A DNA stretch of 14,741 nucleotides from a virus (taxonomy: Duplodnaviria > Heunggongvirae > Uroviricota > Caudoviricetes), in IMG/VR virus record IMGVR_UViG_2657245664_000011; one strand, 5' to 3'. The notes beneath the pieces are model-generated. The model made no database searches. It worked only from the letters and a program-made list of their open reading frames with translations, and was not told where the DNA came from. This document shows, piece after piece, positions 1-14,454 of the stretch (position 1 is its first letter; each line of letters begins with the position of its first letter). A program made the translations under genes and the position numbers.

Positions 1-1053
1 TTACGGGGTAATGCCAACCGCTGCCGCCACTTTGTCGCCACTTGGCAGCGTTGCCAGAGGATTGAAACGGAGCGCCGTTTCTAGATGATCCGGTGCCAGA
101 TGTGCGTAACGCATAGTCATTTTTATATCGTGGTGTCCGAGAATTTTTTGTAAGGCCAGAATGTTTCCACCCGACATCATGAAGTGCGCCGCAAACGTAT
201 GGCGCAGAACGTGTGTGAGTTGACCGCGAGGGAGCACGATAGACGTTTTTTCCATCACGGATAAAAATTGAAAATAGCAGTCTGTGAAGAAATTGAACCC
301 ATCAAGCGCCATGATCTCTTCGTAAAGCTCTTTACTGATAGGGATGCTTCTGTTTTTCTTCCCCTTCGTTCTGACAAAGGTAATTCGGTATTTGGTCACC
401 TGTGAGCGGGTAAGATTTACGGCTTCACGCCAGCGTGCGCCTGTGCTTAAGCATATCTTAACTACCAGTGCCAGAATTGGGTCCTGACGTTTGCAATCAG
501 CCAGCAATTCAACAATCTGCTCATGGGTAAGCCATGCCATCTCTTTTTCTGCGATGGTGAATTTTCGCATGTTCTCCAGTGGGTTCGGATACGACCATTC
601 GCCCAGACGGGATAGTTCGCTAAAAACACTACTTAGATAGCTTTGCTCCAGGTTAATGGTGACCGGGCTTGCTCCTTTCTTCCATTTCTCGCTGAAGTAG
701 ATCTCGCCTGTCAGGCGTTTATCTCGATAGTGGGCAAACATTTTAGAGGTGAGATCGGTTGCAAGAGGATTGCCCAGAGCGTCAACCATCAACAGCAATT
801 TGTCATAGACATGCTGCCCAGCTGTCAGAGATTTACCATGTAGTTTGAACCATAGCTCAACCACGTCTTTCAGTGTTCGACGATCCACTGATTCACCCAG
901 CCAGGGCTTTGCTTCGGTTTCTTCCATCGTGTGGCGCTCAAAAGCCAGTGCTTCGCCTTTGGTGGCGAATTGTTTACGCACACGACGCCCACTTCGTCCG
1001 GCGGGGTAACATTCGCAAAGCCATTTCCCTGTGGTTAGTTTTCGTACTGCCAT
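1..1053 (-). CDS. int: Tyrosine site-specific integrase, P2/186 family
   Basis: 350-aa ORF whose C-terminal region carries the tyrosine-recombinase signature (LRHTFA ... GHHDIKMTMRYAHL, with the catalytic Tyr). It sits at the prophage end, co-oriented with the repressor. The stop codon is at positions 1-3, so the gene is complete. Confidence 0.9.
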   Translation of the reverse strand: MAVRKLTTGKWLCECYPAGRSGRRVRKQFATKGEALAFERHTMEETEAKPWLGESVDRRTLKDVVELWFKLHGKSLTAGQHVYDKLLLMVDALGNPLATDLTSKMFAHYRDKRLTGEIYFSEKWKKGASPVTINLEQSYLSSVFSELSRLGEWSYPNPLENMRKFTIAEKEMAWLTHEQIVELLADCKRQDPILALVVKICLSTGARWREAVNLTRSQVTKYRITFVRTKGKKNRSIPISKELYEEIMALDGFNFFTDCYFQFLSVMEKTSIVLPRGQLTHVLRHTFAAHFMMSGGNILALQKILGHHDIKMTMRYAHLAPDHLETALRFNPLATLPSGDKVAAAVGITP

Positions 1054-1080
1054 AAAAAGCCCTCATATCAGAGGGCTAAA
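1054..1080 (-). terminator. Hairpin followed by a T-run immediately upstream of the int ATG; candidate intrinsic terminator for the cargo gene and/or an RBS-sequestering structure
   Basis: On the minus strand the sequence reads AGCCCTC-TGATAT-GAGGGCT-TTTTT-ATG (7-bp stem, 6-nt loop, T5). The GAGGG in the 3' arm is also the only plausible Shine-Dalgarno for int. Confidence 0.35.
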
Positions 1081-1135
1081 TTTAACTGTATATGTAACCA
1101 GTAATCAATGTGTGATTACTATGAAACATACATTG

Positions 1136-2812
1136 CTAAGCAACATGTAGTTCATCGTTGGCGGAAGTGGCTGCTTTGCGCTCCTGCTCAATAGCTAGAG
1201 ACTCTCTATATTCTTTCGCCTCTGCAAACATTGTCCAGTGGGCGTTGATGTTCATGTCTTCAATAACTGATTTGATTTCTTTTAAATTTACGTTAAAAAA
1301 CTCTTTTCGTGAGTTAATTTTATTGACCTGCTTTTCGTTGAAAACTTTATGCAGATGGTTTTCTAATGATGGTGCATCATCACTATAAATCATCGCATGA
1401 ACATCGAACGAAAAAGGAACACTAGCATCTCCGAGTTCACGAACACGATCAAGTGGTTCAAGGCGGCGTGTCATTCCAATTTTATATACATCTTCGCCAA
1501 ATGAACCAATATTACTAATGATATAGACGTGGCCTGATCTGGTTTGTTGAGCCATAGAAATAGCTCGTTGATTTTTAGCTTCAGCTTCTTCATATTTTAA
1601 CTGTAGTTCAGCTATTTTTTGCTCTAAAGCTAAGCGTTGTTCTTCATTTGCAAGCATAAGTTCTTTCGTTGCTTTATTTATAGCTTGCTGAATAGCTTTT
1701 TCTTCTTTTTCAGCTTCTTTTATCGCTTTTTCATATTCTCTACGAGCTCTTTCCTCTTCACGAAGCTGTTCTTTAATCCTTCTTTGCTCTTCTTTTTCTT
1801 CGAGCATAATTTCATTAACTGCTACACCCCATTTTAGCTCGTTGAGTCTTGCCTGAAGATAGATGTCACTTATTTTTGCGGACCTAAAGGCAGAGCCATT
1901 GTAATTTACTAGTTGAAATGCATCTTTTATTTCTTGGGAAAGTTTTCCAAAATTGTTGTGTTTGACTTTTGATAAAATACTGTCAACTCTTCCATTGAAG
2001 GCATCCAAAACAAAGTTTATGGCAGTATTACGCCTGTTTTGCTCAACATAATCACACGAAGCAGCTTTATTAGTTTTTATTAATGATTTGGTTAACTCTC
2101 TGGCTTTTTGTAATTCCTTGCCTGCATCTGTAAATTCATAATTTTCTGCCAGCTCATCAAGTACACTACGGTTAGGGATGATCCATTCATCACCATAACC
2201 TTCAATTTTATTTTTCATTGATTTTGCAACTGCTTCATATTTTTCTGCAAACTCTTTAGCTTCATATGCTGAACCAGCAATCTCCTTTGCTCTTTCTTCT
2301 GCATCAGAAATAATTTTTACTGCATTGTCATTAGCATTTGAGATTAGCTCATTTGCTTTATTATTAGCATTATCAAGACGTTCTTTGGCTTTCAGGCGTG
2401 CATCGCGAGCGTCTTTGGTGATTGCTATAGCTTCGCTATTAGCGTTGCTTATTGTCATCTGAGCTTGATAATTTGCTTCGTTTACTGTTTTAGCCGCCTT
2501 AATTTGGGCTTCATCTATTTTTTGCTTGGCTATTGAGTCCGCATTTTTTATCTTATTCTCTGCATCCATTACTGCGCTGTGCAATTCTTCGTATTGCCAC
2601 AATGGTGCTGCTCGCCCTTCAAGCTCTGATAATTCTCGTACGGTCTGTGCTAGTTTTTCTTGATTTTCAATCAGTTGGTTAGAAAGGGCTATGTTGTTAG
2701 CTGTCAGGTTATCTATAGCCGCTTTGTGTTTTTTACTTTGTTTAAATAATATTACAGCTAGAACAGGGGCGAGAAATGCTAATAAGAGTATAACGATGGC
2801 AAATGAATTCAT
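1136..2812 (-). CDS. Prophage cargo protein: N-terminal transmembrane anchor, long coiled coils, a central DUF4041-like region and a C-terminal T5orf172/GIY-YIG-like domain; candidate defense or exclusion factor
   Basis: 558-aa ORF with an AAGGA ribosome-binding site 7 nt upstream of the ATG. The N-terminus (FAIVILLLAFLAPVLAVILF) is a hydrophobic helix. Long K/E/A/N-rich heptad-like stretches follow. The C-terminus (GHVYIISNIGSFGEDVYKIGMTRRLEPLDRVRELGDASVPFSFDVHAMIYSDDAPSLENHLHKVFNEKQVNKINSRKEFFNVNLKEIKSVIE) matches the T5orf172 pattern as I recall it. The gene is visibly more AT-rich than the flanking phage genes. Confidence 0.8.
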   Translation of the reverse strand: MNSFAIVILLLAFLAPVLAVILFKQSKKHKAAIDNLTANNIALSNQLIENQEKLAQTVRELSELEGRAAPLWQYEELHSAVMDAENKIKNADSIAKQKIDEAQIKAAKTVNEANYQAQMTISNANSEAIAITKDARDARLKAKERLDNANNKANELISNANDNAVKIISDAEERAKEIAGSAYEAKEFAEKYEAVAKSMKNKIEGYGDEWIIPNRSVLDELAENYEFTDAGKELQKARELTKSLIKTNKAASCDYVEQNRRNTAINFVLDAFNGRVDSILSKVKHNNFGKLSQEIKDAFQLVNYNGSAFRSAKISDIYLQARLNELKWGVAVNEIMLEEKEEQRRIKEQLREEERARREYEKAIKEAEKEEKAIQQAINKATKELMLANEEQRLALEQKIAELQLKYEEAEAKNQRAISMAQQTRSGHVYIISNIGSFGEDVYKIGMTRRLEPLDRVRELGDASVPFSFDVHAMIYSDDAPSLENHLHKVFNEKQVNKINSRKEFFNVNLKEIKSVIEDMNINAHWTMFAEAKEYRESLAIEQERKAATSANDELHVA

Positions 2813-2832
2813 TTTAAAATCCTTTTACTATA

Positions 2833-3429
2833 TTAATTCGAGACTATTGTACTTCTTATACAAGCAACCACTTCAATATCAGAAAATGCACATTCAAAGC
2901 TATTCTCTGCTGTTGTAATTTTAATCATTCCTTTAGGAAGCCTTGTGATTTTTCGAATGGAATAGGTTCCGTCGATATTGATTAACCAGTTTCCATCAAG
3001 TACTTCAGAAAATTTTTGATCACAAATGTATGTGACGAGTCCATCCTGAACAACAATTGGTGATGAAAGGTTTGCAGGAAGAAATGATGAATCGAAGACA
3101 TATGAACCGTCTTCAATCATTTTGCCTGCGGCAAGGCGAAACTTAACAAGCTCTTCTGTAGCTGCTGTCAGCGAGCTTTGCTTAAGGCCTTGTCCGGTAG
3201 TTAACCATTTGAGGGAGGTTCCTGTTTCAAGAGCACATTGGATTATCCAGTCAGCAGGAAATGTATCCCGCAAATACCTGTTCGCTAGTGTGCTTTTTGA
3301 TACTTCCAAGTGATCAGCTAAAGCCTGTCGTGTCGTAAAGCCATAGGCTTCGACTAATCGCTCAATCGCAGCCTTACCACCTTTATTGGGATTTATTTTG
3401 ATCTCACTTGGGTACTTTGATGTTGACAT
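2833..3429 (-). CDS. cI: CI-like immunity repressor (phage 186 CI type, N-terminal HTH plus C-terminal oligomerisation domain)
   Basis: 198-aa ORF divergent from apl/cII. The N-terminal pattern EAYGFTTRQALADHL...LANRYLR...CALETG..LKWLTTGQG is the 186 CI-type HTH as I recall it. Position and length are close to 186 CI. Confidence 0.8.
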   Translation of the reverse strand: MSTSKYPSEIKINPNKGGKAAIERLVEAYGFTTRQALADHLEVSKSTLANRYLRDTFPADWIIQCALETGTSLKWLTTGQGLKQSSLTAATEELVKFRLAAGKMIEDGSYVFDSSFLPANLSSPIVVQDGLVTYICDQKFSEVLDGNWLINIDGTYSIRKITRLPKGMIKITTAENSFECAFSDIEVVACIRSTIVSN

Positions 3430-3451
3430 ATCTCTTTTGCGATCCTAGTAT
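3423..3451 (+). promoter_or_regulatory. Candidate early lytic promoter pR (sigma70)
   Basis: TTGACA at 3423-3428, a 17-bp spacer, then TAGTAT at 3446-3451. It faces apl/cII and overlaps the cI start codon, consistent with a 186-type switch. Confidence 0.55.
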
Positions 3452-3458
3452 CAGTTTT

Positions 3459-3474
3459 GTACCCAATTGGGTAC
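3459..3474. promoter_or_regulatory. Perfect 16-bp palindrome GTACCCAATTGGGTAC at the predicted pR start; candidate operator for CI or Apl
   Basis: Exact dyad symmetry read directly from the sequence. A TTGGGTAC half-site recurs at 3408-3415. Confidence 0.45.
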
Positions 3475-3524
3475 TTGTCACGATTACTACAGGCTCACCA
3501 CAAGCCAATAGGAGATGTTGCATC

Positions 3525-3746
3525 ATGACCCCTAACATTTCAATAACTCTGAATACGCCACACGTCACAATCGAGCGTTATAGCGAACTTACTGGTCTTT
3601 CAATCGACACAATCAACGATATGTTGGCGGATGGTCGCATTCCTCGGCATCGTCTTCGTAAAGACAAGAAAAGAGAAAAGGTAATGATCAACCTTGCTGC
3701 TCTTACCGTTGATGCACTTACTGATTGCAATGTTGTATTCAACTAG
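3525..3746 (+). CDS. apl: Apl/Cox-like excisionase and transcriptional regulator
   Basis: 73-aa ORF that is the first gene rightward of the switch. A small basic protein with an HTH-like segment ([29 protein letters not shown]). The ATG at 3525 is preferred over the upstream TTG of the ORF track because that extension would run through the promoter and into cI. Confidence 0.7.
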
Positions 3747-3778
3747 TTCCATTTTGGGATACATCAGAGGTGTCGACC

Positions 3779-4288
3779 ATGTTTGATTACCAAGTTTCCA
3801 AACATCCACATTTTGATGAAGCCTGTCGTGCATTCGCACTGCGCCACAATCTGGTGCAACTGGCAGAACGTGCGGGCATGAATGTGCAGATTCTGCGGAA
3901 CAAGCTGAACCCAGCTCAACCTCATTTATTAACCGCACCAGAAATCTGGCTGCTTACCGATCTGACTGAAGATTCAACGTTGGTAGATGGTTTTCTGGCA
4001 CAGATTCATTGTCTGCCATGTGTACCGATTAATGAGGTAGCAAAAGAGAAACTGCCGCATTACGTCATGAGCGCAACTGCAGAGATCGGGCGTGTTGCAG
4101 CAGGTGCGGTATCTGGTGATGTAAAAACTAGTGCCGGTCGTCGTGATGCTATCAGCAGCATTAACTCTGTAACACGACTGATGGCTCTGGCTGCTGTTTC
4201 ATTGCAAGCCCGTTTACAGGCTAATCCTGCGATGGCGAGTGCAGTTGATACCATGACTGGCCTTGGTGCTTCATTCGGTTTGCTGTGA
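3779..4288 (+). CDS. cII: CII-like activator of lysogeny establishment (186 CII type)
   Basis: ATG at 3779 with an AGAGG ribosome-binding site 8 nt upstream gives a 169-aa product starting [21 protein letters not shown], which closely resembles 186 CII as I recall it and matches its length. Confidence 0.8.
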
Positions 4289-5579: not shown

Positions 5580-6433
5580 GCACCATCCTGAAATGGGCGG
5601 GAAATAAAACCGCCATTATGCCAGAACTGAAAAAATACCTTCCTGCTGGCCCGCGACTGGTTGAACCTTTCGCGGGTTCCTGTGCTGTGATGATGGAAAC
5701 GGATTATCCCAGCTATCTGGTTGCGGATATTAATCCTGATTTAATCAACCTCTATAAAAAGGTTGCCGCTGATTGTGAATCGTTTATATCTCGCGCCAGA
5801 GTTTTATTTGAGATCGCAAACAGGGAGGTGGCTTATTACAACATAAGGCAGGAGTTTAACTGCTCAACTGAAATTACTGATTTCATGAAAGCGGTATATT
5901 TCCTGTATCTCAATCGTCACGGTTACCGTGGTTTATGTCGCTATAACAAGAGCGGGCATTTCAACATTCCCTACGGTAATTATAAAAATCCGTATTTCCC
6001 TGAAAAAGAACTTCGCACATTTGCAGAAAAAGCCCAGCGAGCAACGTTTATCTGCGCCAGCTTTGATGAAACGCTGGCGATGTTGAAGGCGGGAGATGTG
6101 GTGTATTGCGATCCGCCATATGACGGTACGTTTTCCGGCTATCACACTGATGGTTTCACTGAAGATGACCAGTATCACCTGGCATCCGTTCTTGAACATC
6201 GGTCATCAGAAGGACATCCGGTCATTGTTTCTAACAGTGACACATCCCTGATCCGTTCGCTGTATCGCAATTTTACTCACCACTATATCAAGGTAAAACG
6301 CAGCATCGGTGTGGCAGCTGGCGAGGGTAAATCAGCAACAGAAATCATTGCTGTTTCCGGGCCGCGCTGCTGGATGGGATTTGATTATTCGCGTGGCGTG
6401 GATAGTTCTGCCGTGTACGGAGTACGTGCATGA
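5576..6433 (+). CDS. dam: Dam-family N6-adenine DNA methyltransferase (orphan, phage-encoded)
   Basis: ATG at 5576 with a GGAGG ribosome-binding site. Carries ILKWAGNK, an AdoMet-binding motif (EPFAGSCAV) and the catalytic DPPY. Start and stop overlap the neighbours as ATGA, so it is translationally coupled between the TraR-like gene and gene A. Confidence 0.85.
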
Positions 6434-7956
6434 GTCATGCCGATATGAACAACTGCTGCGGCTTTAACGAGGCTGCCGCAGCATTCTCATGGAACAGCCC
6501 GAAAAAGGCCATTAACCCTTATCTGGACCCGGCGGAAGTTGCGCCGGTTTCTACGCTTTCAAACCTGATCACTCTGTACGCTGCCGATAACGAGCAGGAA
6601 CAGTTGCGCCGCGAGGCACTGAGTGATCAGGTCTGGGAGCGTTATTTCTTTAATGAATCACGTGATCCTGTCCAGCGCGAAATGGAGCAGGATAAGCTCA
6701 TTAGCCGGGCAAAGCTGGCGCATGAGCAGCAGCGTTTTAATTCAGACATGGTCATTCTGGCGGACGTCAACGCCCAGCCTTCCCATATCAGCAAGCCGCT
6801 GATGCAACGTATTGAATACTTCAGCAGCCTGGGCAGGCCAAAGGCTTATTCCCGCTATTTACGTGAGACGATTAAGCCATGTCTGGAACGACTGGAGCAT
6901 GTACGCGACAGTCAGCTATCTGCATCTTTTCGCTTTATGGCAAGCCATGAAGGGCTGGACGGCCTGCTGATCCTGCCTGAAATGAGTCAGGATCAGGTGA
7001 AACGCCTGTCCACCTTGGTAGCTGCGCATATGAGTATGTGCCTTGATGCAGCTTGTGGTGATTTGTATGCCACCGATGACGTTAAGCCAGAAGAAATCCG
7101 CAAGACATGGGAAAAGGTGGCAGCGGAAACCCTGCGTCTGGATGTCATCCCACCTGCGTTTGAGCAACTCCGTCGGAAAAGAAACCGCCGTAAACCCGTG
7201 CCGTATGAACTCATTCCGGGTTCGCTGGCGCGTATGTTGTGCGCCGACTGGTGGTATCGGAAATTATGGAAGATGCGTTGCGAATGGCGGGAAGAGCAGT
7301 TGCGCGCTGTTTGCCTGGTCAGCAAAAAAGCATCTCCTTATGTCAGCTATGAAGCCGTGATGCATAAACGTGAGCAGCGCCGTAAGTCGCTGGAGTTTTT
7401 CCGTTCTCATGAACTGGTGAACGAAGACGGCGACACGCTGGACATGGAGGATGTGGTAAACGCCAGCAGCAGCAACCCTGCGCATCGCCGCAATGAGATG
7501 ATGGCCTGTGTTAAAGGTCTGGAGCTTATCGCGGAAATGCGCGGTGACTGCGCCGTTTTCTACACTATCACCTGTCCGTCGCGTTTCCATTCCACGCTAA
7601 ATAACGGCAGACCAAACCCGACCTGGACAAACGCGACGGTAAGACAAAGCAGCGATTATCTGGTCGGCATGTTTGCTGCATTTCGTAAGGCGATGCACAA
7701 AGCCGGGTTGCGCTGGTATGGCGTGCGGGTGGCTGAGCCGCATCATGATGGCACAGTTCACTGGCACCTGTTGTGTTTCATGCGCAAAAAAGACCGCCGT
7801 GCCATCACTGCATTACTGCGTAAGTTTGCCATCCGTGAAGACCGCGAGGAGCTGGGCAATAACACTGGGCCGCGCTTTAAGTCTGAGTTGATTAAGCACT
7901 GTGTGTCAGGCTGGATGGCGTGGAAAAATAGGTTTGTCGCCATTTTTTGTGAATAG
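6430..7956 (+). pseudogene. A: Replication initiation endonuclease gpA (rolling-circle HUH type), C-terminally truncated
   Basis: 508-aa ORF containing the HUH motif (TVHWHLLCF). It ends in a short atypical tail that overlaps the inverted terminase fragment. P2/186 A proteins are about 700-760 aa, so the C-terminal part is missing. Confidence 0.75.
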
Positions 7957-8764
7957 CCATACCGGAAGCCACTTTGCGCAGCTCCTGGAATTTCGGTATC
8001 CAGAAATATTCATCCAGATACAGGTTGCCGTGGTAACTCTGGGCCGTGCGGGCATTGGTGCCGAGGAAGTACAGCGTGGCCCCGTTAGGAAGCACCATCG
8101 GATCGCCTTTCAGCTCCACCTCCACTTCTTTGGCGAAGTCGATGATGTACTGCTTAAAGACGTGGGCCTGAGCCTTGCTGGCGGAAAGGAAAATCTGGTT
8201 ACGCCCGGTTAGCAGGGCGTCAATCAGGGCTTCACGGGCAAAATAGAAGGTCGCGCCGATCTGGCGTGACTTCAGCAGGTTGCGGATGCGGTTGGTTTTT
8301 CCGGCTTCCCACCAGTGGCGCTGGTAGTTGAACATGGAGGAATGGAAGATTTCTTCCAGCTTCTCAATCTGTTCATCGGTGAAAACGTTCTTTTCCGGCT
8401 GACGGCGCGGGCCTTTGTTGCGGTTGGCGACGTTAGGGTTTAAGTCGGCTTCGTTGCCGCCATTGTTAAACTTGCCGATCCGCGCATGGCGCTCCGACTG
8501 GCGCGCCAGCAGGTCAATCTCTTTGAAATCTTTCCCTTCTTTGTGCTCCTTCATAATGAGCTGGCAGTAGCGTGCGGCGGTGGTGAGCTGCATCTGATCC
8601 AGCGGCCCATAGTCACCCCACTTGTCGCGTTTTTTCCAGCTGTGAACGGTTGCAACTTTCTCGCCCAGCATTTCAGCAATGCGGGCTACGCGGTATCCCT
8701 GAAAGTACAGCAGCATGGCCTGCCGACGGGGATCGAGATCTGCGGGTGTCAGTGTGGTGTTCAT
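7892..8764 (-). pseudogene. P: Terminase ATPase (large subunit) gpP, N-terminal fragment only
   Basis: 290-aa ORF with P2 gpP-like N-terminus and Walker-type motifs ([24 protein letters not shown]). A full gpP is about 590 aa, and the nuclease half is absent. Its orientation is opposite to gene A, as in P2. Confidence 0.8.
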
Positions 8765-8813
8765 GGCACAAACCTACAGCCTTGAATGAAGGCTTTCCCC
8801 GCCTGCGGTTTGT

Positions 8814-9998
8814 GTGGTTGCGGGTTTACTTACTGCACCGTTGTCATCTTTGCGCCGCACGGCATCACTGACGGGAAATGTCATGAAAACTGTAGCAGGT
8901 GCGCCGGTTGCACTTTTGCGGTCTGGATTATCCGGTTTACGTGCTGTTGCTGTGATGTTTATGAATCCTCTGGCGGTACTGCGCGGTGGACTGGTCGCCG
9001 CAGGCACGGTGCTGCGAGTACTGGCATCTGGTCCACTGGCGATGCTGCGCGTTGCCCTGTATGCCGTATCTGGTCTGTTAGGTGCTCTGCTCAGTCCGAT
9101 AGGTCTTGTGGTTACTGCACTGGCGGGCGTGGCGCTGGTTGTCTGGAAATACTGGCAACCCATCACCGCATTTCTTGGTGGCGTGGTGGAAGGATTCAAA
9201 GCGGCGGCAGGTCCCGTCAGTGCAGCATTCGAACCACTTAAGCCTGTGTTTCAGTGGATTGGCGACAAAGTGCAGGCGCTCTGGGGCTGGTTTACTGATC
9301 TGCTGACGCCCGTTAAGTCGACCTCTGCCGAACTGCAGAGCGCAGCGGCAATGGGGCGACGATTCGGGGAGGCACTGGCGGAAGGGCTGAATATGGTTAT
9401 GCATCCGCTGGACTCCCTGAAATCTGGCGTTTCCTGGTTGCTGGATAAACTCGGCATTGTCAGTAAAGAGGCTGCAAAGGCGAAACTGCCGGAAAGCGTG
9501 ACGCGTCAGCAACCTGCGACGGTGAATGCAGACGGTAAAGTGATGATGCCATCGGGTGGTTTTCCGTCATGGGGATATGGCTTTGCGGGGATGTATGACA
9601 GCGGCGGCTATATCCCGCGTGGGCAGTTTGGCATCGTCGGTGAAAACGGGCCGGAAATTGTTAACGGCCCGGCAAATGTGACCAGCCGGAGAAATACAGC
9701 TGCACTGGCTGCCGTTGTTGCCGGAATGATGGGCGTTGCTGCCGCGCCAGCAGAGCTTCCACCGTTGCACCCTTTGGCACTTCCCGCGAAAGGTGGAGAA
9801 GCAATTGTGAGTCGCGCAGCCACTGTGCCGCTCGTTCAACGGATTGAGGCACCGACGCAGATCATCATTCAGACGCAGCCAGGACAAAGTGCGCAGGATA
9901 TTGCGCGGGAGGTGGCACGCCAGCTTGATGAACGTGAACGCAGGCTGAAGGCAAAAGCCAGGAGTAACTACAGCGATCAGGGGGGATACGACGCATGA
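8814..9998 (+). pseudogene. T: Tail tape measure protein gpT, C-terminal fragment
   Basis: 394-aa G/A/L-rich ORF whose stop overlaps the gpU start (ATGA). The frame opens only at 8790, a few bases from the terminase fragment start, and the first possible start is a GTG. P2 gpT is about 815 aa. Confidence 0.7.
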
Positions 9999-10480
9999 TG
10001 ATGGTGCTGGGATTGTACGTGTTTATGCTGCGCACCGTTCCGTATCAGGAACTGCAGTATCAACGCAGCTGGCGACATGCGGCAAACAGCCGGGTAAACC
10101 GTCGTCCGTCCACGCAGTTTCTGGGACCGGAAAACGACATGCTGACGCTTTCCGGTGTTCTTATGCCGGAGATAACAGGCGGCAGGCTGTCGTTGCTGGC
10201 ACTGGAGCAGATGGCAGAACAGGGGAAAGCATGGCCCCTGATTGAAGGCAGCGGCACGATTTACGGCATGTATGTGATTGAGGGACTGAATCAGACTAAA
10301 ACGGAGTTTTTCCGCGACGGTATGCCGCGCAGGATTGAGTTCACCCTTTCGCTAAAACGGGTGGATGAATCCCTGTCCGATATGTTCGGTGATCTCAGTA
10401 CTCAACTGAATAATCTGCAGGACACGGCAACGTCTGCCTTAAGCGATATCAGTAAAACGGTGGGAGGGCTGCTGTCGTGA
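9995..10480 (+). CDS. U: Tail protein gpU
   Basis: 161-aa ORF in the T-U-D order, coupled to T upstream and D downstream. Its size matches P2 gpU. Confidence 0.85.
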   Translation: MMMVLGLYVFMLRTVPYQELQYQRSWRHAANSRVNRRPSTQFLGPENDMLTLSGVLMPEITGGRLSLLALEQMAEQGKAWPLIEGSGTIYGMYVIEGLNQTKTEFFRDGMPRRIEFTLSLKRVDESLSDMFGDLSTQLNNLQDTATSALSDISKTVGGLLS

Positions 10481-11577
10481 ATTTCAGCTCTGAACTGCTT
10501 AACAAAGGAAACAAAACTCCCGCATTCAGCATCAGTATTGAGGGGAAGGATATCACCACTGTGCTGGATAACCGCCTGATGAGTCTGACGCTGACGGACA
10601 ATCGGGGCTTTGAAGCGGACCAACTTGATCTGGAGCTGGACGACGCCGACGGAAAAATCGTGCTGCCGCGCCGTGGTGCGGTCATTACGCTGGCGCTGGG
10701 CTGGAAGGGGCAGCCGCTTTTCCCGAAAGGGGCATTCACGGTGGACGAGATTGAACACACTGGCGCACCGGACCGCCTGACTATCCGGGCGCGAAGTGCT
10801 GATTTTCGGGAAACGCTGAATACCCGCCGTGAAAAATCGTGGCATAACACCACCATCGGGGAAGTGGTGAAGGAAATAGCCGCGCGGCACAAGCTGAAGA
10901 TGGCACTGGGTAAAGACCTGTCGGATAAGCCCGTGGAGCATATAGACCAGACTAATGAGAGTGACGGCAGTTTTTTGATGCGGCTGGCGCGCCAGTACGG
11001 TGCCATTGCATCGGTGAAAAATGGCAATCTGTTATTCATCCGGCAGGGACAGGGCAAAAGCGCCAGCGGTAAACCACTGCCGGTGATTACTATCACACGT
11101 AAGGACGGCGACAGTCACCGCTTTACCCTGGCAGATCGCGGAGCTTACACGGGGGTAATTGCCAGCTGGTTGCATACCCGCGAACCCGCGAAGAAAGAAA
11201 GCACTACGGTGAAGCGTAAGCGCAGGACTAAGAAGCAGAAGAAAGAGCCGGAAGCGAAGCAGGGCGATTACCTGGTGGGGACGGATGAAAACGTGCTGGT
11301 ACTTAATCGCACTTATGCCAACCGGAGCAACGCTGAACGGGCAGCGAAAATGCAGTGGGAACGCCTGCAACGCGGCGTTGCGTCATTCTCGCTACAACTG
11401 GCGGAAGGGCGGGCAGATCTCTACACGGAAATGCCAGTGAAAGTCAGTGGCTTTAAACAGCCGATAGATGATGCGGAATGGAGCATTACGACTCTGACGC
11501 ATACCGTCAGCCCGGATAACGGTTTTACGACCAGTCTGGAGCTTGAAGTGAGGATTGATGATTTCGAAATGGAATGA
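10477..11577 (+). CDS. D: Tail protein gpD
   Basis: 366-aa ORF with a GTG start overlapping the U stop. It occupies the P2 D position immediately before ogr. Confidence 0.85.
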   Translation: MNFSSELLNKGNKTPAFSISIEGKDITTVLDNRLMSLTLTDNRGFEADQLDLELDDADGKIVLPRRGAVITLALGWKGQPLFPKGAFTVDEIEHTGAPDRLTIRARSADFRETLNTRREKSWHNTTIGEVVKEIAARHKLKMALGKDLSDKPVEHIDQTNESDGSFLMRLARQYGAIASVKNGNLLFIRQGQGKSASGKPLPVITITRKDGDSHRFTLADRGAYTGVIASWLHTREPAKKESTTVKRKRRTKKQKKEPEAKQGDYLVGTDENVLVLNRTYANRSNAERAAKMQWERLQRGVASFSLQLAEGRADLYTEMPVKVSGFKQPIDDAEWSITTLTHTVSPDNGFTTSLELEVRIDDFEME

Positions 11578-11667
11578 TTCTTCGCAATGGAGAACTTTTA
11601 AGTTTGCAAAATGGAATAATGCGGTATCATTATTGTGAATTTAGCAAAAATGGGGAGAACTCGAAAA

Positions 11668-11886
11668 ATGATGATTTGCCCACTGTGTGGAAGTGCCGCC
11701 CATACTCGCAGCAGTTTTCAGGTATCTTCATTGACCAAAGAGCGTTACAACCAGTGCCAGAACATTAACTGCAGCCATACTTTTGTTACCCATGAAACTT
11801 TTGTTCGTTCGATTGCAACGCCAAAAGAGTCAAATCCGGTTCAGCCGCATCCAATGAAATCAGGACAGGTGGCGCTCTCTCTTTGA
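11668..11886 (+). CDS. ogr: Ogr/Delta-family zinc-finger late transcription activator
   Basis: 72-aa product MMICPLCGSAAHTRSS...QCQNINCSHTF with the CxxC-(22)-CxxxxC arrangement of P2 Ogr and 186 B. A GGGGAG ribosome-binding site lies upstream. Confidence 0.85.
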   Translation: MMICPLCGSAAHTRSSFQVSSLTKERYNQCQNINCSHTFVTHETFVRSIATPKESNPVQPHPMKSGQVALSL

Positions 11887-12121: not shown

Positions 12122-13807
12122 TTATCCTAATCCTGGCCATACCATGACGATGATTGTCCCTGCCAGCGTCAGCAGGACGTTGGCGATTGCATAGGTGCCC
12201 GCATAGCCCAGCGCCGGGATGTTACTGCGAGCTGTATCACTGATGATCTCCATTGCCGGCGCGCAGGTACGTGCGCCCATCATTGCGCCGAACAACAGCG
12301 CGCGGTTCATTCGCAATACATAAGCACCGAACAAGAAACAGATAACCACGGGCACCAGACTGACAATCAATCCGGCAATCAACATCTGACCGCCAATCGC
12401 GCCCAGGCCGTTATTAATACCGCTACCGGCGCTCAGACCAACGCCTGCCATAAACACCATCAAGCCGAACTCTTTCACCATGCTTAATGCACCCTGCGGA
12501 ATGTAACCGAAGGTCGGGTGGTTAGCACGCATAAAGCCCAGCATAATTCCGGCGAATAACAACCCGGCAGCGTTCCCCATGCCGAAACTGAATGTGCTGA
12601 ACTGGAAGGTGATCATCCCGATCATCAGCCCAATAACAAAGAAGGCGCAGAATGCCAGCAGGTCAGTGACCTGGCTGTGAATCGAGATAAAGCCGATGCG
12701 ATCGGCGATGGTTTTTACGCGGCGGGCATCGCCGCTGACTTGTAAAACGTCACCTTTGTTAAGCACGACGTTGTCATCTATCGGCATCTCAATCTGGCTA
12801 CGAATGACGCGGTTAAGGAAGCAACCGTGATCGGTCAACTTCAGTTGTGCGAGACGTTTACCTACAGCGTTATGGTTTTTAACGACCACTTCTTCAGTGA
12901 CGATACGCATGTCGAGAAGGTCACGATCGAAAACTTCTTTACCGTTACGGAAGCTGGGATCGAGTCGGGCATGGGCGTCGGGATAGCCTACCAACGCTAT
13001 TTCATCGCCCATTTGTAGCACGGCATCACCGTCTGGATTTGCCAGAATCCCGTTACGTCGAATACGTTCAATGTAGCAGCCGGTTTGTCGATAAATACCC
13101 AGTTCACGCAGATTTTTGCCGTCGGTCCAGGCCACCAGTTCCGGGCCGACGCGATAGGCGCGGATCACCGGTAAATAAACCTTACGGTTGGCATCAGTGT
13201 CCAGGCCACGTTCGCGGGCGATTTGCTGGGCGCTGGTCTGTAAGTCCTGATGCTGCAATTTCGGCAAGTAACGCGCACCAACAATCAAACTCACCAGACC
13301 GATTAAATAGGTTAAGGCATACCCGAGGCTCAGATTATCCAGTGCCAGTGAGAGCTGCCTGCTTTCCATGCCGGAATGACGCAGTGTATCGCCAGCACCG
13401 ACCAGAACCGGTGTCGACGTCATAGAGCCTGCTAACATACCGGCCGTCAGGCCAATATCCCAGCCAAACAGCTTACCTAACCCTAAGGCGATCACCAGCG
13501 CACTGCCAACCATCACCAGTGCTAACATTAGGTAATTTTTCCCATCGCGAAAAAAAATGGAAAAAAAGTTCGGTCCGGCTTCGACCCCGACGCAGAAAAT
13601 AAACAGCATAAAGCCAAGATTAAGCGCATCGGTGTTAATGCTGAAATGTTGTTGGCCTAATAACAGCGATACGACTAAAACGCCAATGGAATTACCCAGT
13701 TGGATCGAACCAAGTCGTAACTTTCCGAGACATAGCCCAAGCGCGAGGACCACAAATAATAACAGAATGTAATTCCCATTTAACAATTCGGCGACGTTTA
13801 TATTCAC
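12122..13807 (-). CDS. ybjL: Putative transport protein YbjL (AAE-family permease with TrkA-C-like domains)
   Basis: 561-aa polytopic membrane protein whose sequence matches E. coli YbjL as I recall it. Neighbour order ybjL-ybjM-grxA matches the E. coli chromosome. Confidence 0.9.
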
Positions 13808-14076: not shown

Positions 14077-14454
14077 GTGAAACATAAACAACGTTGGGCG
14101 GGGGCAATCTGCTGTTTTGTCCTCTTCATTGTGGTGTGCCTTTTTCTGGCGACGCACATGAAAGGCGCTTTTCGGGCTGCCGGGCATCCTGAAATCGGCT
14201 TGCTATTTTTCATTCTTCCTGGAGCAGTCGCCAGCTTCTTTTCACAGCGTAGAGAAGTCCTGAAACCTCTGTTTGGCGCAATGCTGGCGGCACCCTGTTC
14301 GATGCTCATTATGCGGCTGTTTTTTTCACCGACGCGCTCATTCTGGCAAGAGCTGGCATGGTTACTAAGCGCGGTGTTCTGGTGTGCGCTGGGGGCACTG
14401 TGTTTCTTATTTATCAGTAGTTTGTTTAAACCACAGCACAGAAAAAATCAGTAA
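14077..14454 (+). CDS. ybjM: Inner membrane protein YbjM
   Basis: 125-aa hydrophobic ORF with a GTG start and an AGGAGG ribosome-binding site 5 nt upstream. Conserved position between ybjL and grxA. Confidence 0.8.
   Translation: MKHKQRWAGAICCFVLFIVVCLFLATHMKGAFRAAGHPEIGLLFFILPGAVASFFSQRREVLKPLFGAMLAAPCSMLIMRLFFSPTRSFWQELAWLLSAVFWCALGALCFLFISSLFKPQHRKNQ

Follow-up and report, generated by a model that had tools for sequence, protein, structure and literature searches.

A SNIPE/PD-lambda-1 family gene between cI and int of a P2/186-like prophage remnant and a predicted SOS-controlled int leader

Gene content of the cI-int region

The window, i.e. the whole stretch of DNA that was analysed (14,741 nucleotides), contains a P2/186-like prophage which is a deletion remnant of about 12 kb; the term lysogen is therefore used here in the sense of a carrier of a cryptic prophage. 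The genes cI, cargo and int follow each other in the ORF layout of the minus strand (Table 1). Near-identical GenBank/RefSeq records are annotated in the same way, and int is annotated as integrase in ON470620 and in RefSeq records. Positions 1-4000 are 100% identical in E. coli SCU-118. The prophage ends just past position 1, on the attL side, which adjoins the host gene rcdA in relatives. The stop codon of cI and the ATG of the cargo gene are separated by 20 nt, in which the Shine-Dalgarno (SD) sequence of the cargo gene is located 7 nt ahead of the ATG, and the cargo stop codon is followed by 82 nt (1054-1135) before the ATG of int. A preliminary description of the locus had given these distances as 20 bp and about 80 bp and all three genes as co-oriented, which is borne out; the interval 2813-3429 to which it had assigned its finding comprises cI together with the gap of 20 nt; the position of the cargo gene is 1136-2812.

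The region shows the features of a P2/186-type lysogenic control region, namely a CI-family repressor, predicted convergent pR and pL promoters, cII with a pE region, and co-oriented downstream genes. The cox/apl-like gene, for which no match was obtained in Pfam, is annotated as Cox or MerR-family protein in relatives. Phage 186 (NC_001317) has in common with the locus the CI-family repressor, the face-to-face arrangement of pR and pL, cII with its ATGTTTG-N13-CAAACAT site, and fil, and in addition a LexA-controlled operon after gene A that is found in intact relatives. It differs in that its cI and int share a single base, with no cargo present, and in that its int is annotated within the lysogenic operon transcribed from pL and pE. 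The G+C content of the cargo gene is about 35% versus 47-51% in the flanks (12-15 points under the backbone), and the low G+C content is common to the cargo gene and the 3' half of cI.

Table 1 Features of the cI-int region of the window
Feature	Position	Strand	Basis
int, tyrosine integrase, 350 aa	1..1053	-	Pfam Int_N 3e-32, Phage_integrase 7e-22
Hairpin AGCCCTC-TGATAT-GAGGGCT, then T5 and int ATG	1058..1077	-	terminator scan, RNA fold
Candidate int promoter: -35 TTGATT (1108-1103), 17-nt spacer, -10 TTAAAT (1085-1080)	1080..1108	-	read from sequence
Predicted LexA (SOS) box AACTGTATATGTAACCAGTA, fills spacer of candidate int promoter	1084..1103	+	heterology index 2.64
Dyad ATGTATG-N12-CACACAT just upstream of -35	1108..1133	-	alignments
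Cargo, SNIPE/PD-lambda-1 family membrane-anchored GIY-YIG nuclease (by homology), 558 aa	1136..2812	-	PADLOC, Pfam
cI-cargo gap, 20 nt, with cargo SD AAGGA (2820-2824)	2813..2832	-	sequence
cI immunity repressor, 198 aa	2833..3429	-	Pfam Phage_CI_repr 8e-32, Phage_CI_C 4e-27
pR-like early lytic promoter TTGACA-17-TAGTAT, overlaps cI start	3423..3451	+	promoter scan 10/12
Palindrome GTACCCAATTGGGTAC, downstream of pR-like promoter	3469-3484		
Candidate pL: -35 TTGAAA (3544-3539), 17 nt, -10 CAACAT (3521-3516)	3516..3544	-	analogy with 186
cox/apl-like gene, 73 aa	3525..3746	+	Cox or MerR-family annotation in relatives
cII, 169 aa	3779..4288	+	Pfam Phage_CP76 3e-42; compared with 186 annotation
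186-type CII dyad ATGTTTG-N13-CAAACAT, pE region	3779-3805		186 annotation compared

By its sequence, the cargo protein is a member of the SNIPE/PD-lambda-1 family. It was matched by the PADLOC models PDLC03976 (2.4e-120) and PDLC03977 (7.9e-117) for PD-Lambda-1, which cover residues 106-551, and by the Pfam domains DUF4041 (residues 267-322), T5orf172 (427-520) and MUG113 (443-520); the earlier suspicion of a defence gene is thus upheld by PADLOC (E=2e-120). A scan of the cargo protein, CI, Cox and two unknown cargo proteins against NCBIfam yielded no useful match. Published SNIPE is an inner-membrane-anchored GIY-YIG nuclease that cuts siphovirus DNA on injection, and its N-terminal region was proposed to be an adaptor setting phage and receptor specificity (PMC9519451, PMC13190303). 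The studied protein has 500 aa versus 558 aa in the cargo protein and the same order of N-terminal transmembrane (TM) helix, coiled coil, DUF4041 and C-terminal GIY-YIG/T5orf172 domain. Identity amounts to 50% across 293 aa comprising DUF4041 and the nuclease, where the catalytic glutamate is kept (E414 of the studied PD-lambda-1 aligns with E484 of the cargo protein), and the N-terminal approximately 260 aa of the cargo protein cannot be aligned with the studied SNIPE. Read by eye, residues 4-23 of the cargo protein (FAIVILLLAFLAPVLAVILF) are hydrophobic throughout and are followed by KQSKKHK, making this segment a candidate N-terminal TM helix. Homology to the studied nuclease suggests that this allele, too, would be active in defence. 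The genomic contexts differ, as the studied SNIPE is encoded by the lambdoid prophage PhiR26_1, where its gene lies between ren and rha in the opposite direction to the adjoining genes and not behind a repressor gene; a provenance of the published SNIPE from the same cI-int slot was ruled out by this source.

The leader of int

The interval between the cargo gene and int has the length of about 80 bp given in the preliminary description but is not an empty spacer, as it holds a promoter-like element, a predicted LexA box (1084-1103) and a hairpin (1058-1077). A -35 element of the type TTGAC/TTTAC and a -10 element of the type TAnnnT hold the same register in 46 leaders, and the site is a candidate sigma-70-like promoter, with its predicted start falling within the 5' arm of the hairpin. 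The heterology index (HI) of the LexA box, computed with a matrix built from LexA sites, is 2.64, to be read against a range of 0.1-9.2 for 17 E. coli LexA sites; the best of 200 shuffles reached 7.8 and the next-best site in the window 13.4. The 77 loci compared across species include 40 that have a box with an HI below 10 at 27-34 nt ahead of the int ATG, and no LexA box was found near int in the 186-type loci, in 186 itself (best HI 12.1) or in P2. In an intact relative, a second pair of LexA boxes was detected upstream of a DinI-like operon. LexA is predicted to bind to 1084-1103, and int would then be induced in the SOS response; the literature searched, the coverage of which was partial, gave no account of LexA-controlled int in P2-like prophages.

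The hairpin has a stem of 7 bp with 5 G-C pairs, and its 3' arm contains the SD sequence of int, GAGGG. Folding gave -13.3 kcal/mol for the hairpin and a z value of -4.75 for a leader segment of 111 nt. Since the stems are too divergent for covariation counts with MAFFT, leaders were folded individually and compared with a control gene set: among 46 unique leaders, which come from many genera, 38 have the SD sequence paired at dG<=-8, by at least eight different stem sequences, versus 23 of 220 control genes. The T5 tract behind the stem corresponds to T4-T7 in Escherichia/Klebsiella-type leaders. In Serratia-, Yersinia- and Rahnella-type leaders the hairpin is kept and the U-tract absent, which rules out a purely terminating function as the conserved role; masking of the SD sequence looks to be that role.

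The dyad marks the beginning, 2 nt past the cargo stop codon, of the leader sequence that is conserved whatever the cargo. Its half-sites resemble the CII site of phage 186 (ATGTTTG-N13-CAAACAT), with a spacing of N12 versus N13, and it also occurs in Rahnella/Pantoea-type elements without detectable cII. If it were a CII site, the arrangement would parallel pI of lambda. The proximal half-site showed only partial matches to the IHF consensus.

The cI-int slot in related prophages

In E. coli relatives, the rcdA-adjacent site carries between cI and int either a 63-aa ORF only, a gene for a 329-aa unknown protein, an OLD/AriA-like ATPase, a KAP NTPase, Old, or IS5 insertions, and at least six states of the slot were distinguished in this species. 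This comparison of the int-repressor interval agrees with the earlier proposal of a variable cargo gene rather than a core gene. Approximately 30 of 77 species-level loci contain cargo, which falls into 27 protein clusters. All of the cargo genes selected run in the direction of cI; the first one starts a median of about 20 nt past the cI stop codon, usually at most 30 nt and in some cases overlapping it, and the final cargo stop codon lies about 80-90 nt ahead of int, flush with the conserved leader. The slot is a fixed position that reaches from cI to the conserved int leader, with exchangeable content. In phage 186 and in all of the 15 186-type loci, cI abuts or overlaps int and cargo is absent.

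Twelve of 20 cargo representatives matched PADLOC models, one of the 12 weakly (PDC-M34B, 4e-7); the matches include Old (6e-232), AbiU (7e-127), HEC-01 A/B, PDC-S20, PDC-M11A and PDC-M18 A/B. About ten protein families of the slot had no match in Pfam or PADLOC. The unknown families of the slot include a 329-aa DUF2207_C-like protein, proteins of 309 aa and 493 aa, and a 350+201-aa pair. With its variable and defence-rich content, the enrichment being judged on the raw count of 12 of 20 representatives, the slot is a prophage defence hotspot in the sense of Rousset et al. (2022). The SNIPE allele of the window is present in 164 of 5426 complete E. coli genomes, and the entire int-SNIPE-cI-cII stretch is likewise found in 164. 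Among 1286 matching E. coli records SNIPE occurs in 164, so that it is lacking in most relatives that share int and cII, and seven more species contain the module of cI and SNIPE with the identical gap of 19-20 nt.

The preliminary description did not recognise this position as a described hotspot; however, cargo between cI and int is already described and not new. Rousset et al. (2022, PMC9122126, Fig. 7A) described a hotspot of defence genes at the cI-int position of Vibrio K139-like P2-related phages, and a 2026 survey, which covers 8165 P2-like prophages, assigned 8% of the P2 defence systems to an 'integrase-primase' hotspot (PMC13586616). Both resemble the enterobacterial slot in their variable content rich in known defence systems; the former differs in belonging to Vibrionaceae and the latter in being resolved only to the interval int-gpA, in E. 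coli, Klebsiella and Salmonella. Operon structure, a LexA box and an int leader hairpin are not discussed in the passages of PMC9122126 or PMC13586616 used here. A further precedent is the pneumococcal prophage EJ-1 (NC_005294), in which the order is promoter, cI, 28 nt, a gene for a DUF4041 protein, ORF2, an annotated promoter and int. This DUF4041 protein has 34% identity to the cargo protein along the entire length, TM helix included, and the gene family, order and orientation are equal, with int having a separate promoter. EJ-1 differs in being a phage of a Gram-positive host unrelated to P2, and a LexA box was not detected in it (best HI 10.2).

Expression of the cargo gene and of int

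The predicted pR-like promoter agrees in its position with the annotated pR of phage 186. The candidate pL facing it is a poor match to the consensus and was assigned solely by its position relative to pL of 186 (TTGCGA-17-CATGAT, overlapping the apl start); it is proposed as the putative source of a cI-cargo transcript. A consensus promoter scan of the sense strand detected nothing in the 20-nt gap and the adjoining part of cI, as the preliminary description had noted for the gap, and a laxer scan returned two weak 8/12 matches, both within cI (2975-2948 and 3269-3242), versus 4.5 +/- 2.3 in shuffles. A promoter that deviates from the consensus or depends on an activator may be located in the AT-rich 3' end of cI.

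Co-transcription of the cargo gene with cI from the lysogenic promoter, comparable to lambda cI-rexAB, appears to be the best reading, because the cargo gene is situated flush and co-oriented behind cI without a promoter-like element, and because the cargo of the slot varies and is always co-oriented, whereas cI and int of 186-type phages abut without cargo. It is also the most economical one, and the corresponding proposal of the preliminary description is retained in this form. In lambda, rexA and rexB, which have an exclusion/defence function, are located just 3' of cI, are transcribed from the maintenance promoter and are on in every lysogen. Defence or exclusion genes directly downstream of the immunity repressor gene are common to both cases; the differences are that proteins and phage families are unrelated, that the lambda module is fixed whereas the slot is variable with dozens of occupants, and that int follows the slot. 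In this reading, the cargo gene would most likely be transcribed together with cI from pL, and additionally from pE during establishment, and would be constitutively on as long as the prophage is repressed, like rexAB behind lambda cI. It has a ribosome-binding site of its own, no recognisable promoter, and would occupy a plug-in slot at the 3' end of the cI transcription unit.

The LexA-box promoter-like element and the terminator-like, SD-masking hairpin between the cargo gene and int make int look separately controlled. Transcripts reading through from cI and the cargo gene would be terminated or left untranslatable at the hairpin, and transcripts from the LexA-controlled promoter would start inside its 5' arm and expose the SD sequence. 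The latter idea would not be universal, since the predicted start would leave a stem of 5-6 bp in some clades. As a whole, we consider it probable that the SNIPE-family gene in the cI 3' slot is expressed with the cI transcript and that int is governed separately by the LexA-box promoter and the hairpin. The integron integrase promoter is SOS-controlled, and read-through transcripts of IS10 are subject to 'fold-back inhibition'. The likeness is that of a mechanistic analogy only, consisting in a LexA box overlapping a recombinase promoter in the case of integrons and in a hairpin that hides the recombinase SD sequence only in transcripts started upstream of the recombinase promoter in the case of IS10; the elements and proteins are unrelated, and in some clades of int leaders promoter-proximal transcripts would keep part of the stem.

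The preliminary description had expected a single leftward transcript from pL comprising cI, cargo and int; int would then rely on read-through across the cargo gene, as it relies on pL in 186. The premise that repressor and integrase genes are expressed together in P2/186-type phages agrees with the annotation of 186, in which a single lysogenic operon contains the overlapping genes cI and int and runs to a terminator past int. The co-orientation of all three genes, the result of a stock scan reporting no strong consensus promoter ahead of int, and the shortness of the hairpin with five U residues only, at which read-through could be substantial, would fit such a transcript as well. It is nevertheless unlikely, as a terminator-like hairpin buries the int SD sequence directly ahead of the int ATG, -35 and -10 elements with a high-quality predicted LexA box are placed upstream at a fixed distance in 40 loci, all these elements are missing exactly where cI and int overlap, and in four related prophage elements the same int leader is preceded by a terminator.

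Alternatively, the cargo gene might be an autonomous moron, transcribed independently of pL from a promoter that is concealed in the AT-rich 3' end of cI. Family members can carry their own promoter, because published PD-lambda-1 works from at most 282 bp of flank: clones of the homologue with 62-282 bp of native flanking sequence were active, although from a different, lambdoid context, and in PhiR26_1 it runs against its neighbours. The low G+C content shared by the 3' half of cI and the cargo gene may mean that they arrived together, and the two weak matches within cI could be taken for such a promoter. Matches of this kind are, however, fewer there than in shuffles, and the 27 unrelated clusters are always co-oriented, usually within 30 nt behind cI and in some cases overlapping its stop codon, which is unexpected for self-sufficient cassettes; the moron is considered quite unlikely. 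Rousset et al. (2022, PMC9122126) noted for the P4 hotspot that its cassettes are found in both orientations. A conserved core function of the cargo protein, e.g. in structure or segregation, for which the annotation as 'chromosome segregation ATPase' in ON470620 and KP12 and the constant association with one and the same cI allele, seen in 164 genomes of E. coli and in seven other species, might speak, has a negligible probability and is refuted by the comparative data, i.e. the lack of SNIPE in most relatives sharing int and cII (present in 164 of 1286 matching E. coli records) and the unrelated genes filling the slot elsewhere, as well as by the G+C content 12-15 points under the backbone and the Pfam matches to DUF4041 and GIY-YIG in place of an ATPase domain.

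Returning to co-transcription of the cargo gene with cI and separate control of int, a generalization can be advanced tentatively, as a possibility somewhat short of even: in a large P2/186-like clade, uncoupling of int by a LexA-repressed promoter and a hairpin would have turned the 3' end of cI into an 'expression socket' for promoter-less genes. A captured gene would be on at repressor-like constitutive levels in lysogens, with the supply of Int undisturbed. If true, this would explain why diverse defence genes are found at this position versus none in 186-type phages with overlapping cI and int, and prophage Int would be a member of the SOS regulon in these phages.

A defence gene behind a prophage repressor gene is a type of arrangement already described; the less expected part seems to be the neighbouring int with an SOS-controlled promoter of its own. 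The retention of cI and SNIPE in a remnant of about 12 kb is consistent with a domestication beneficial to the host, because SNIPE blocks injection by other phages in the model for the family. A characterised family of defence nucleases is now found in a second genomic context, promoter-less as far as predicted and directly behind an immunity repressor gene. The enterobacterial cI-int slot is delimited to the nucleotide, with Old, AbiU, HEC-01, KAP NTPases and about ten unmatched families as occupants, and the latter represent a small and well-bounded place to seek new defence genes. If the leader with LexA box and hairpin is functional, it would provide a design rule for why cargo is taken up here by some P2-like phages and not by others, and prophage integrases would join the SOS-controlled recombinases.

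Gene layout and identity of the cargo

The repressor gene cI, a cargo gene and the integrase gene int follow each other on the minus strand. That these genes are co-oriented, with 20 bp before and about 80 bp after the cargo gene, had been proposed in a preliminary description and is confirmed by the six-frame ORF list, the sequence, Pfam and the annotation of relatives, with the same gene calls in RefSeq genomes and in vB_EcoM-813R9, a near-identical phage; the interval 2813–3429, however, which had been assigned to the cargo gene, comprises cI and the 20-nt gap. The absence of an obvious promoter from this gap was borne out: a stock promoter scan of the gap and of cI returned no promoter-like site on the sense strand, and a laxer scan gave two weak 8/12 matches inside cI (4.5 ± 2.3 in shuffled sequences).

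The cargo had been expected to show the expression pattern of a lysogenic-conversion or defense gene, and by its sequence it belongs to a known defense family, as deduced from PADLOC (PD-Lambda-1 models, 2e-120), Pfam, alignment and the RefSeq product name, already "DUF4041 / SNIPE associated domain-containing protein". PD-lambda-1 was discovered through functional selection (PMC9519451) and later characterized and renamed SNIPE, a membrane-bound nuclease which cleaves phage DNA during genome injection and whose hypervariable N-terminal region probably determines target specificity (PMC13190303). The studied SNIPE, from ECOR26 (RCP76574.1, 500 aa), is 50% identical to the window protein over the C-terminal 293 residues, with its catalytic E414 aligned to E484 of the window protein; the N-terminal ~260 residues of the latter gave no alignment to it. 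The cargo gene is AT-rich (~35% G+C vs 47–51% in int and cII). An IS4-like ISVsa5 element interrupts the SNIPE gene in one E. coli genome (NZ_CP116094), and in another (NZ_CM129039) just 57% of the gene is matched; the cargo thus decays in some lineages.

The window contains the whole element, a ~12-kb deletion remnant (features 6430–11886) that lacks the capsid and portal genes and most of the tail genes, and the repressor–SNIPE pair has therefore been retained in a defective prophage. The P'/T' junction is common to other E. coli genomes, and the A'/'P junction was found in one piece in no complete E. coli genome. Judging by the host genes on the right and by rcdA, which lies just left of int in relatives, the element is inserted between rcdA and the ybjL/ybjM region.

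Features of the element and of related loci (window coordinates unless a locus of a relative is named)
Feature	Position	Strand	Description
int	1053->1	minus	350 aa; phage integrase N-terminal and catalytic domains (Pfam)
T5, then int ATG	after hairpin	minus	
Hairpin	1077-1058	minus	AGCCCTC-TGATAT-GAGGGCT; 3' arm is the int Shine-Dalgarno sequence (SD)
-10	1085-1080	minus	TTAAAT; candidate int promoter
LexA box	1103-1084		20 nt; plus-strand sequence AACTGTATATGTAACCAGTA
-35	1108-1103	minus	TTGATT; candidate int promoter
Dyad	1133-1108	minus	ATGTATG-N12-CACACAT; first leader element on sense strand
Cargo-int gap	1054-1135		82 nt
Cargo gene	2812->1136	minus	558 aa (six-frame ORF list)
Hydrophobic helix	residues 4-23		cargo N-terminus
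DUF4041	residues 267-322		within long coiled-coil region (Pfam)
T5orf172/MUG113	residues 427-520		GIY-YIG-type nuclease domain, cargo C-terminus (Pfam)
cI-cargo gap	2813-2832		20 nt; good SD AAGGA 7 nt from ATG
cI	3429->2833	minus	198 aa; CI repressor HTH and C-terminal domains (Pfam)
GGGTAC	3408-3413		inside cI start region
pR-like site	3423-3451		TTGACA-17-TAGTAT (promoter scan, 186 analogy)
Palindrome	3469-3484		GTACCCAATTGGGTAC; perfect, 16 nt
pL candidate	3544-3516		TTGAAA-17-CAACAT; weak; face-to-face with pR-like site (186 analogy)
CII dyad, 186-type	3779-3805		at cII start (186 analogy)
CII (CP76) protein	3779-4288		among genes divergent from cI/cargo/int (Pfam)
gpA	junction near 7890-7956		truncated at 508 aa; abuts gpP fragment on other strand
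Terminase gpP fragment	7892-8764	minus	N-terminal
Tape-measure fragment	8814-9998		C-terminal; abuts gpP fragment, junction near 8764-8814
gpU, gpD, ogr	after tape-measure fragment		then host genes
Asp-Al_Ex/TrkA_C permease	12122-13807	minus	host, right flank
YbjM	14077-14454		host, right flank
Long cI (312-313 aa)	L003 2440-3378; L007 8940-9878; L010 2903-3844; L026 5974-6912		
307-309-aa protein	L016 6981-7910; L017 6982-7911; L080 6932-7855		
Two adjacent LexA-like boxes	L090 (ON470620) 6635-6669		heterology index 4.6 and 9.9; between gpA end and 62-aa ORF

The cI–int interval across relatives

A 4-kb query from int to cII matched 1286 E. coli records, only 164 of them over the whole stretch, and the SNIPE gene alone was likewise found in exactly 164 genomes. 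Among relatives at the rcdA-adjacent attachment site, the cI–int interval contains only a 63-aa ORF (L002, L006), a 329-aa unknown protein (L003), a 662-aa AAA ATPase (L004), a small ORF with a KAP NTPase (L005), a 589-aa ATP-dependent nuclease (L007) or IS5 insertions; Klebsiella phage 4LV2017 has a 349-aa unknown protein in this interval. In a census of 77 loci, one genome per species, fetched via the int protein and with cI found by profile search, ~30 carried cargo here, forming 27 protein clusters. PADLOC recognized P2 Old (6e-232), AbiU (7e-127), two-gene HEC-01, PDC-S20 (KAP NTPase, three loci), PDC-M11A, PDC-M18 A+B and an AriA/Old-like ATPase; ~10 further proteins were matched by neither PADLOC nor Pfam; one has a Swt1-like HEPN domain. 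Seven other species, from genera that include Klebsiella, Raoultella, Citrobacter, Silvania and Dryocola, have SNIPE next to the same cI allele with a gap of 19–20 nt. In phage 186 cI and int overlap by one base, at 15 loci of the 186 type cI abuts int with no gene between them, and the 115-nt gap of P2 contains no gene. The cargo is therefore exchangeable and the slot genuinely variable, in line with the earlier view of a variable rather than a conserved core gene.

The same position had been thought not to be a described hotspot, which is incorrect in view of published hotspots and of prophage EJ-1. A passage of Rousset et al. 2022 (PMC9122126) describes a cI–int defense hotspot in Vibrio P2-related phages, and PMC13586616 gives an integrase–primase hotspot that accounts for 8% of P2 defense systems; the seven systems that Vassallo et al. 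(PMC9519451) found on P2 elements were assigned by them to the two classical hotspots. Pneumococcal prophage EJ-1 has the order promoter–cI–28 nt–DUF4041 protein–ORF2–promoter–int, its DUF4041 protein sharing 34% identity with the window protein along the full length, and in streptococcal prophages generally a homologue lies next to int. With defense family and slot position both already known, the gene is an ordinary instance.

Two further observations concern cargo. A 307–309-aa protein without counterpart in Pfam, PADLOC or NCBIfam is encoded after SNIPE in two species and is present without SNIPE in Yersinia rohdei; it could be cargo in its own right or an accessory. In E. coli Br_190_kylling (L006, 341–1569), a Panacea-domain protein and a 251-aa unknown protein lie between int and the rcdA-side attachment site, a second cargo position that fits the "integrase-att" hotspot as it appears in an excerpt of PMC13586616.

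Probable transcription of the cargo with cI

Every selected cargo gene of the census lies on the cI/int strand, and the first one begins a median of ~20 nt past the cI stop, about two-thirds within 30 nt and some overlapping the stop codon. Gaps in E. coli range from 2 to 43 nt. P4 hotspot cassettes, according to a passage of Rousset et al. 2022 (PMC9122126), are found in either orientation. Since self-sufficient cassettes are not expected to show uniform polarity, this polarity, together with the short gaps and the lack of promoter-like sites, argues for co-transcription, and the best reading of the sequences is that the cargo uses the promoters of the repressor. The studied SNIPE functions with at most 282 bp of its native flanking DNA and is antiparallel to its neighbors in PhiR26_1, so some family members carry their own promoter. 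The textbook analogue of cargo transcribed with the repressor is cI-rexAB of lambda.

In the control region, the palindrome between the pR-like and pL-like sites and the further GGGTAC are candidate cI operator half-sites. In some relatives the cI product has 312–313 aa, its N-terminal HTH region being duplicated, where others have the ~190–198-aa form. The cI genes of the window and L004 are near-identical over the first ~100 nt and divergent thereafter, which indicates recombination breakpoints inside cI; the cargo may thus be swapped along with the immunity type.

The int leader and its proposed control

Whatever the cargo, homology among the relatives starts 2 nt past its stop codon and continues to int. 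In this leader, the LexA box has a heterology index of 2.64, calculated with a matrix of 17 E. coli sites whose own range is 0.1–9.2; the best of 200 window shuffles reached 7.8, and within the window itself the runner-up scored 13.4. Forty of the 77 loci, in many genera, have a box with an index below 10 at 27–34 nt ahead of the int ATG; no 186-type locus has one near int, nor do 186 and P2. In the intact relative L090, LexA boxes after gpA precede a 62-aa ORF and a DinI-like "SOS induction modulator" gene, a region deleted in the window; their position is as in the SOS operon of 186. The half-sites of the conserved leader dyad resemble the 186 CII site ATGTTTG-N13-CAAACAT, which also occurs at cII in the window; the dyad lies directly upstream of the candidate int -35 and is also present in Rahnella/Pantoea-type elements in which no cII was found. 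Loci with a 55%-identical int (L034–L046, L053 and L086; Rahnella, Pantoea, Ewingella, Pectobacterium brasiliense and others) share this LexA box, at about -30, and the SD hairpin, several with a terminator-like GC stem and T-run just before the dyad; upstream lies a co-oriented conserved pair (~160 and ~385 aa) that is not a CI-family repressor.

The hairpin was picked up by a terminator scan, and a 111-nt leader segment folds at z=-4.75. Of 46 unique leaders, 38 pair the SD in a hairpin at least as strong as -8 kcal/mol, built on at least eight different stem sequences, compared with 23 of 220 control genes from the same loci; the U-tract is confined to Escherichia/Klebsiella-type leaders. 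As only 2 nt separate the end of the -10 from the 5' arm, a transcript from the candidate LexA-overlapped promoter would start inside this arm and leave the SD free; in read-through RNA from cI and the cargo the hairpin would be complete, and such RNA would either be terminated or not be translatable. For some clades, promoter-proximal transcripts would still keep part of the stem. Fold-back inhibition in IS10 and LexA control of integron integrases follow the same logic. No description of an int leader with LexA box and hairpin, or of its association with an occupied slot, was found in a literature search of limited scope.

The preliminary description had placed the cargo in a lysogenic transcript from cI through int; of this, probable expression of the cargo with cI is retained, while the leader elements suggest that int is probably separately controlled. 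If so, the cargo would be an extension of the cI transcript and would not lie within a cI–int transcript, and the int-leader architecture is the part of the finding worth bench testing.
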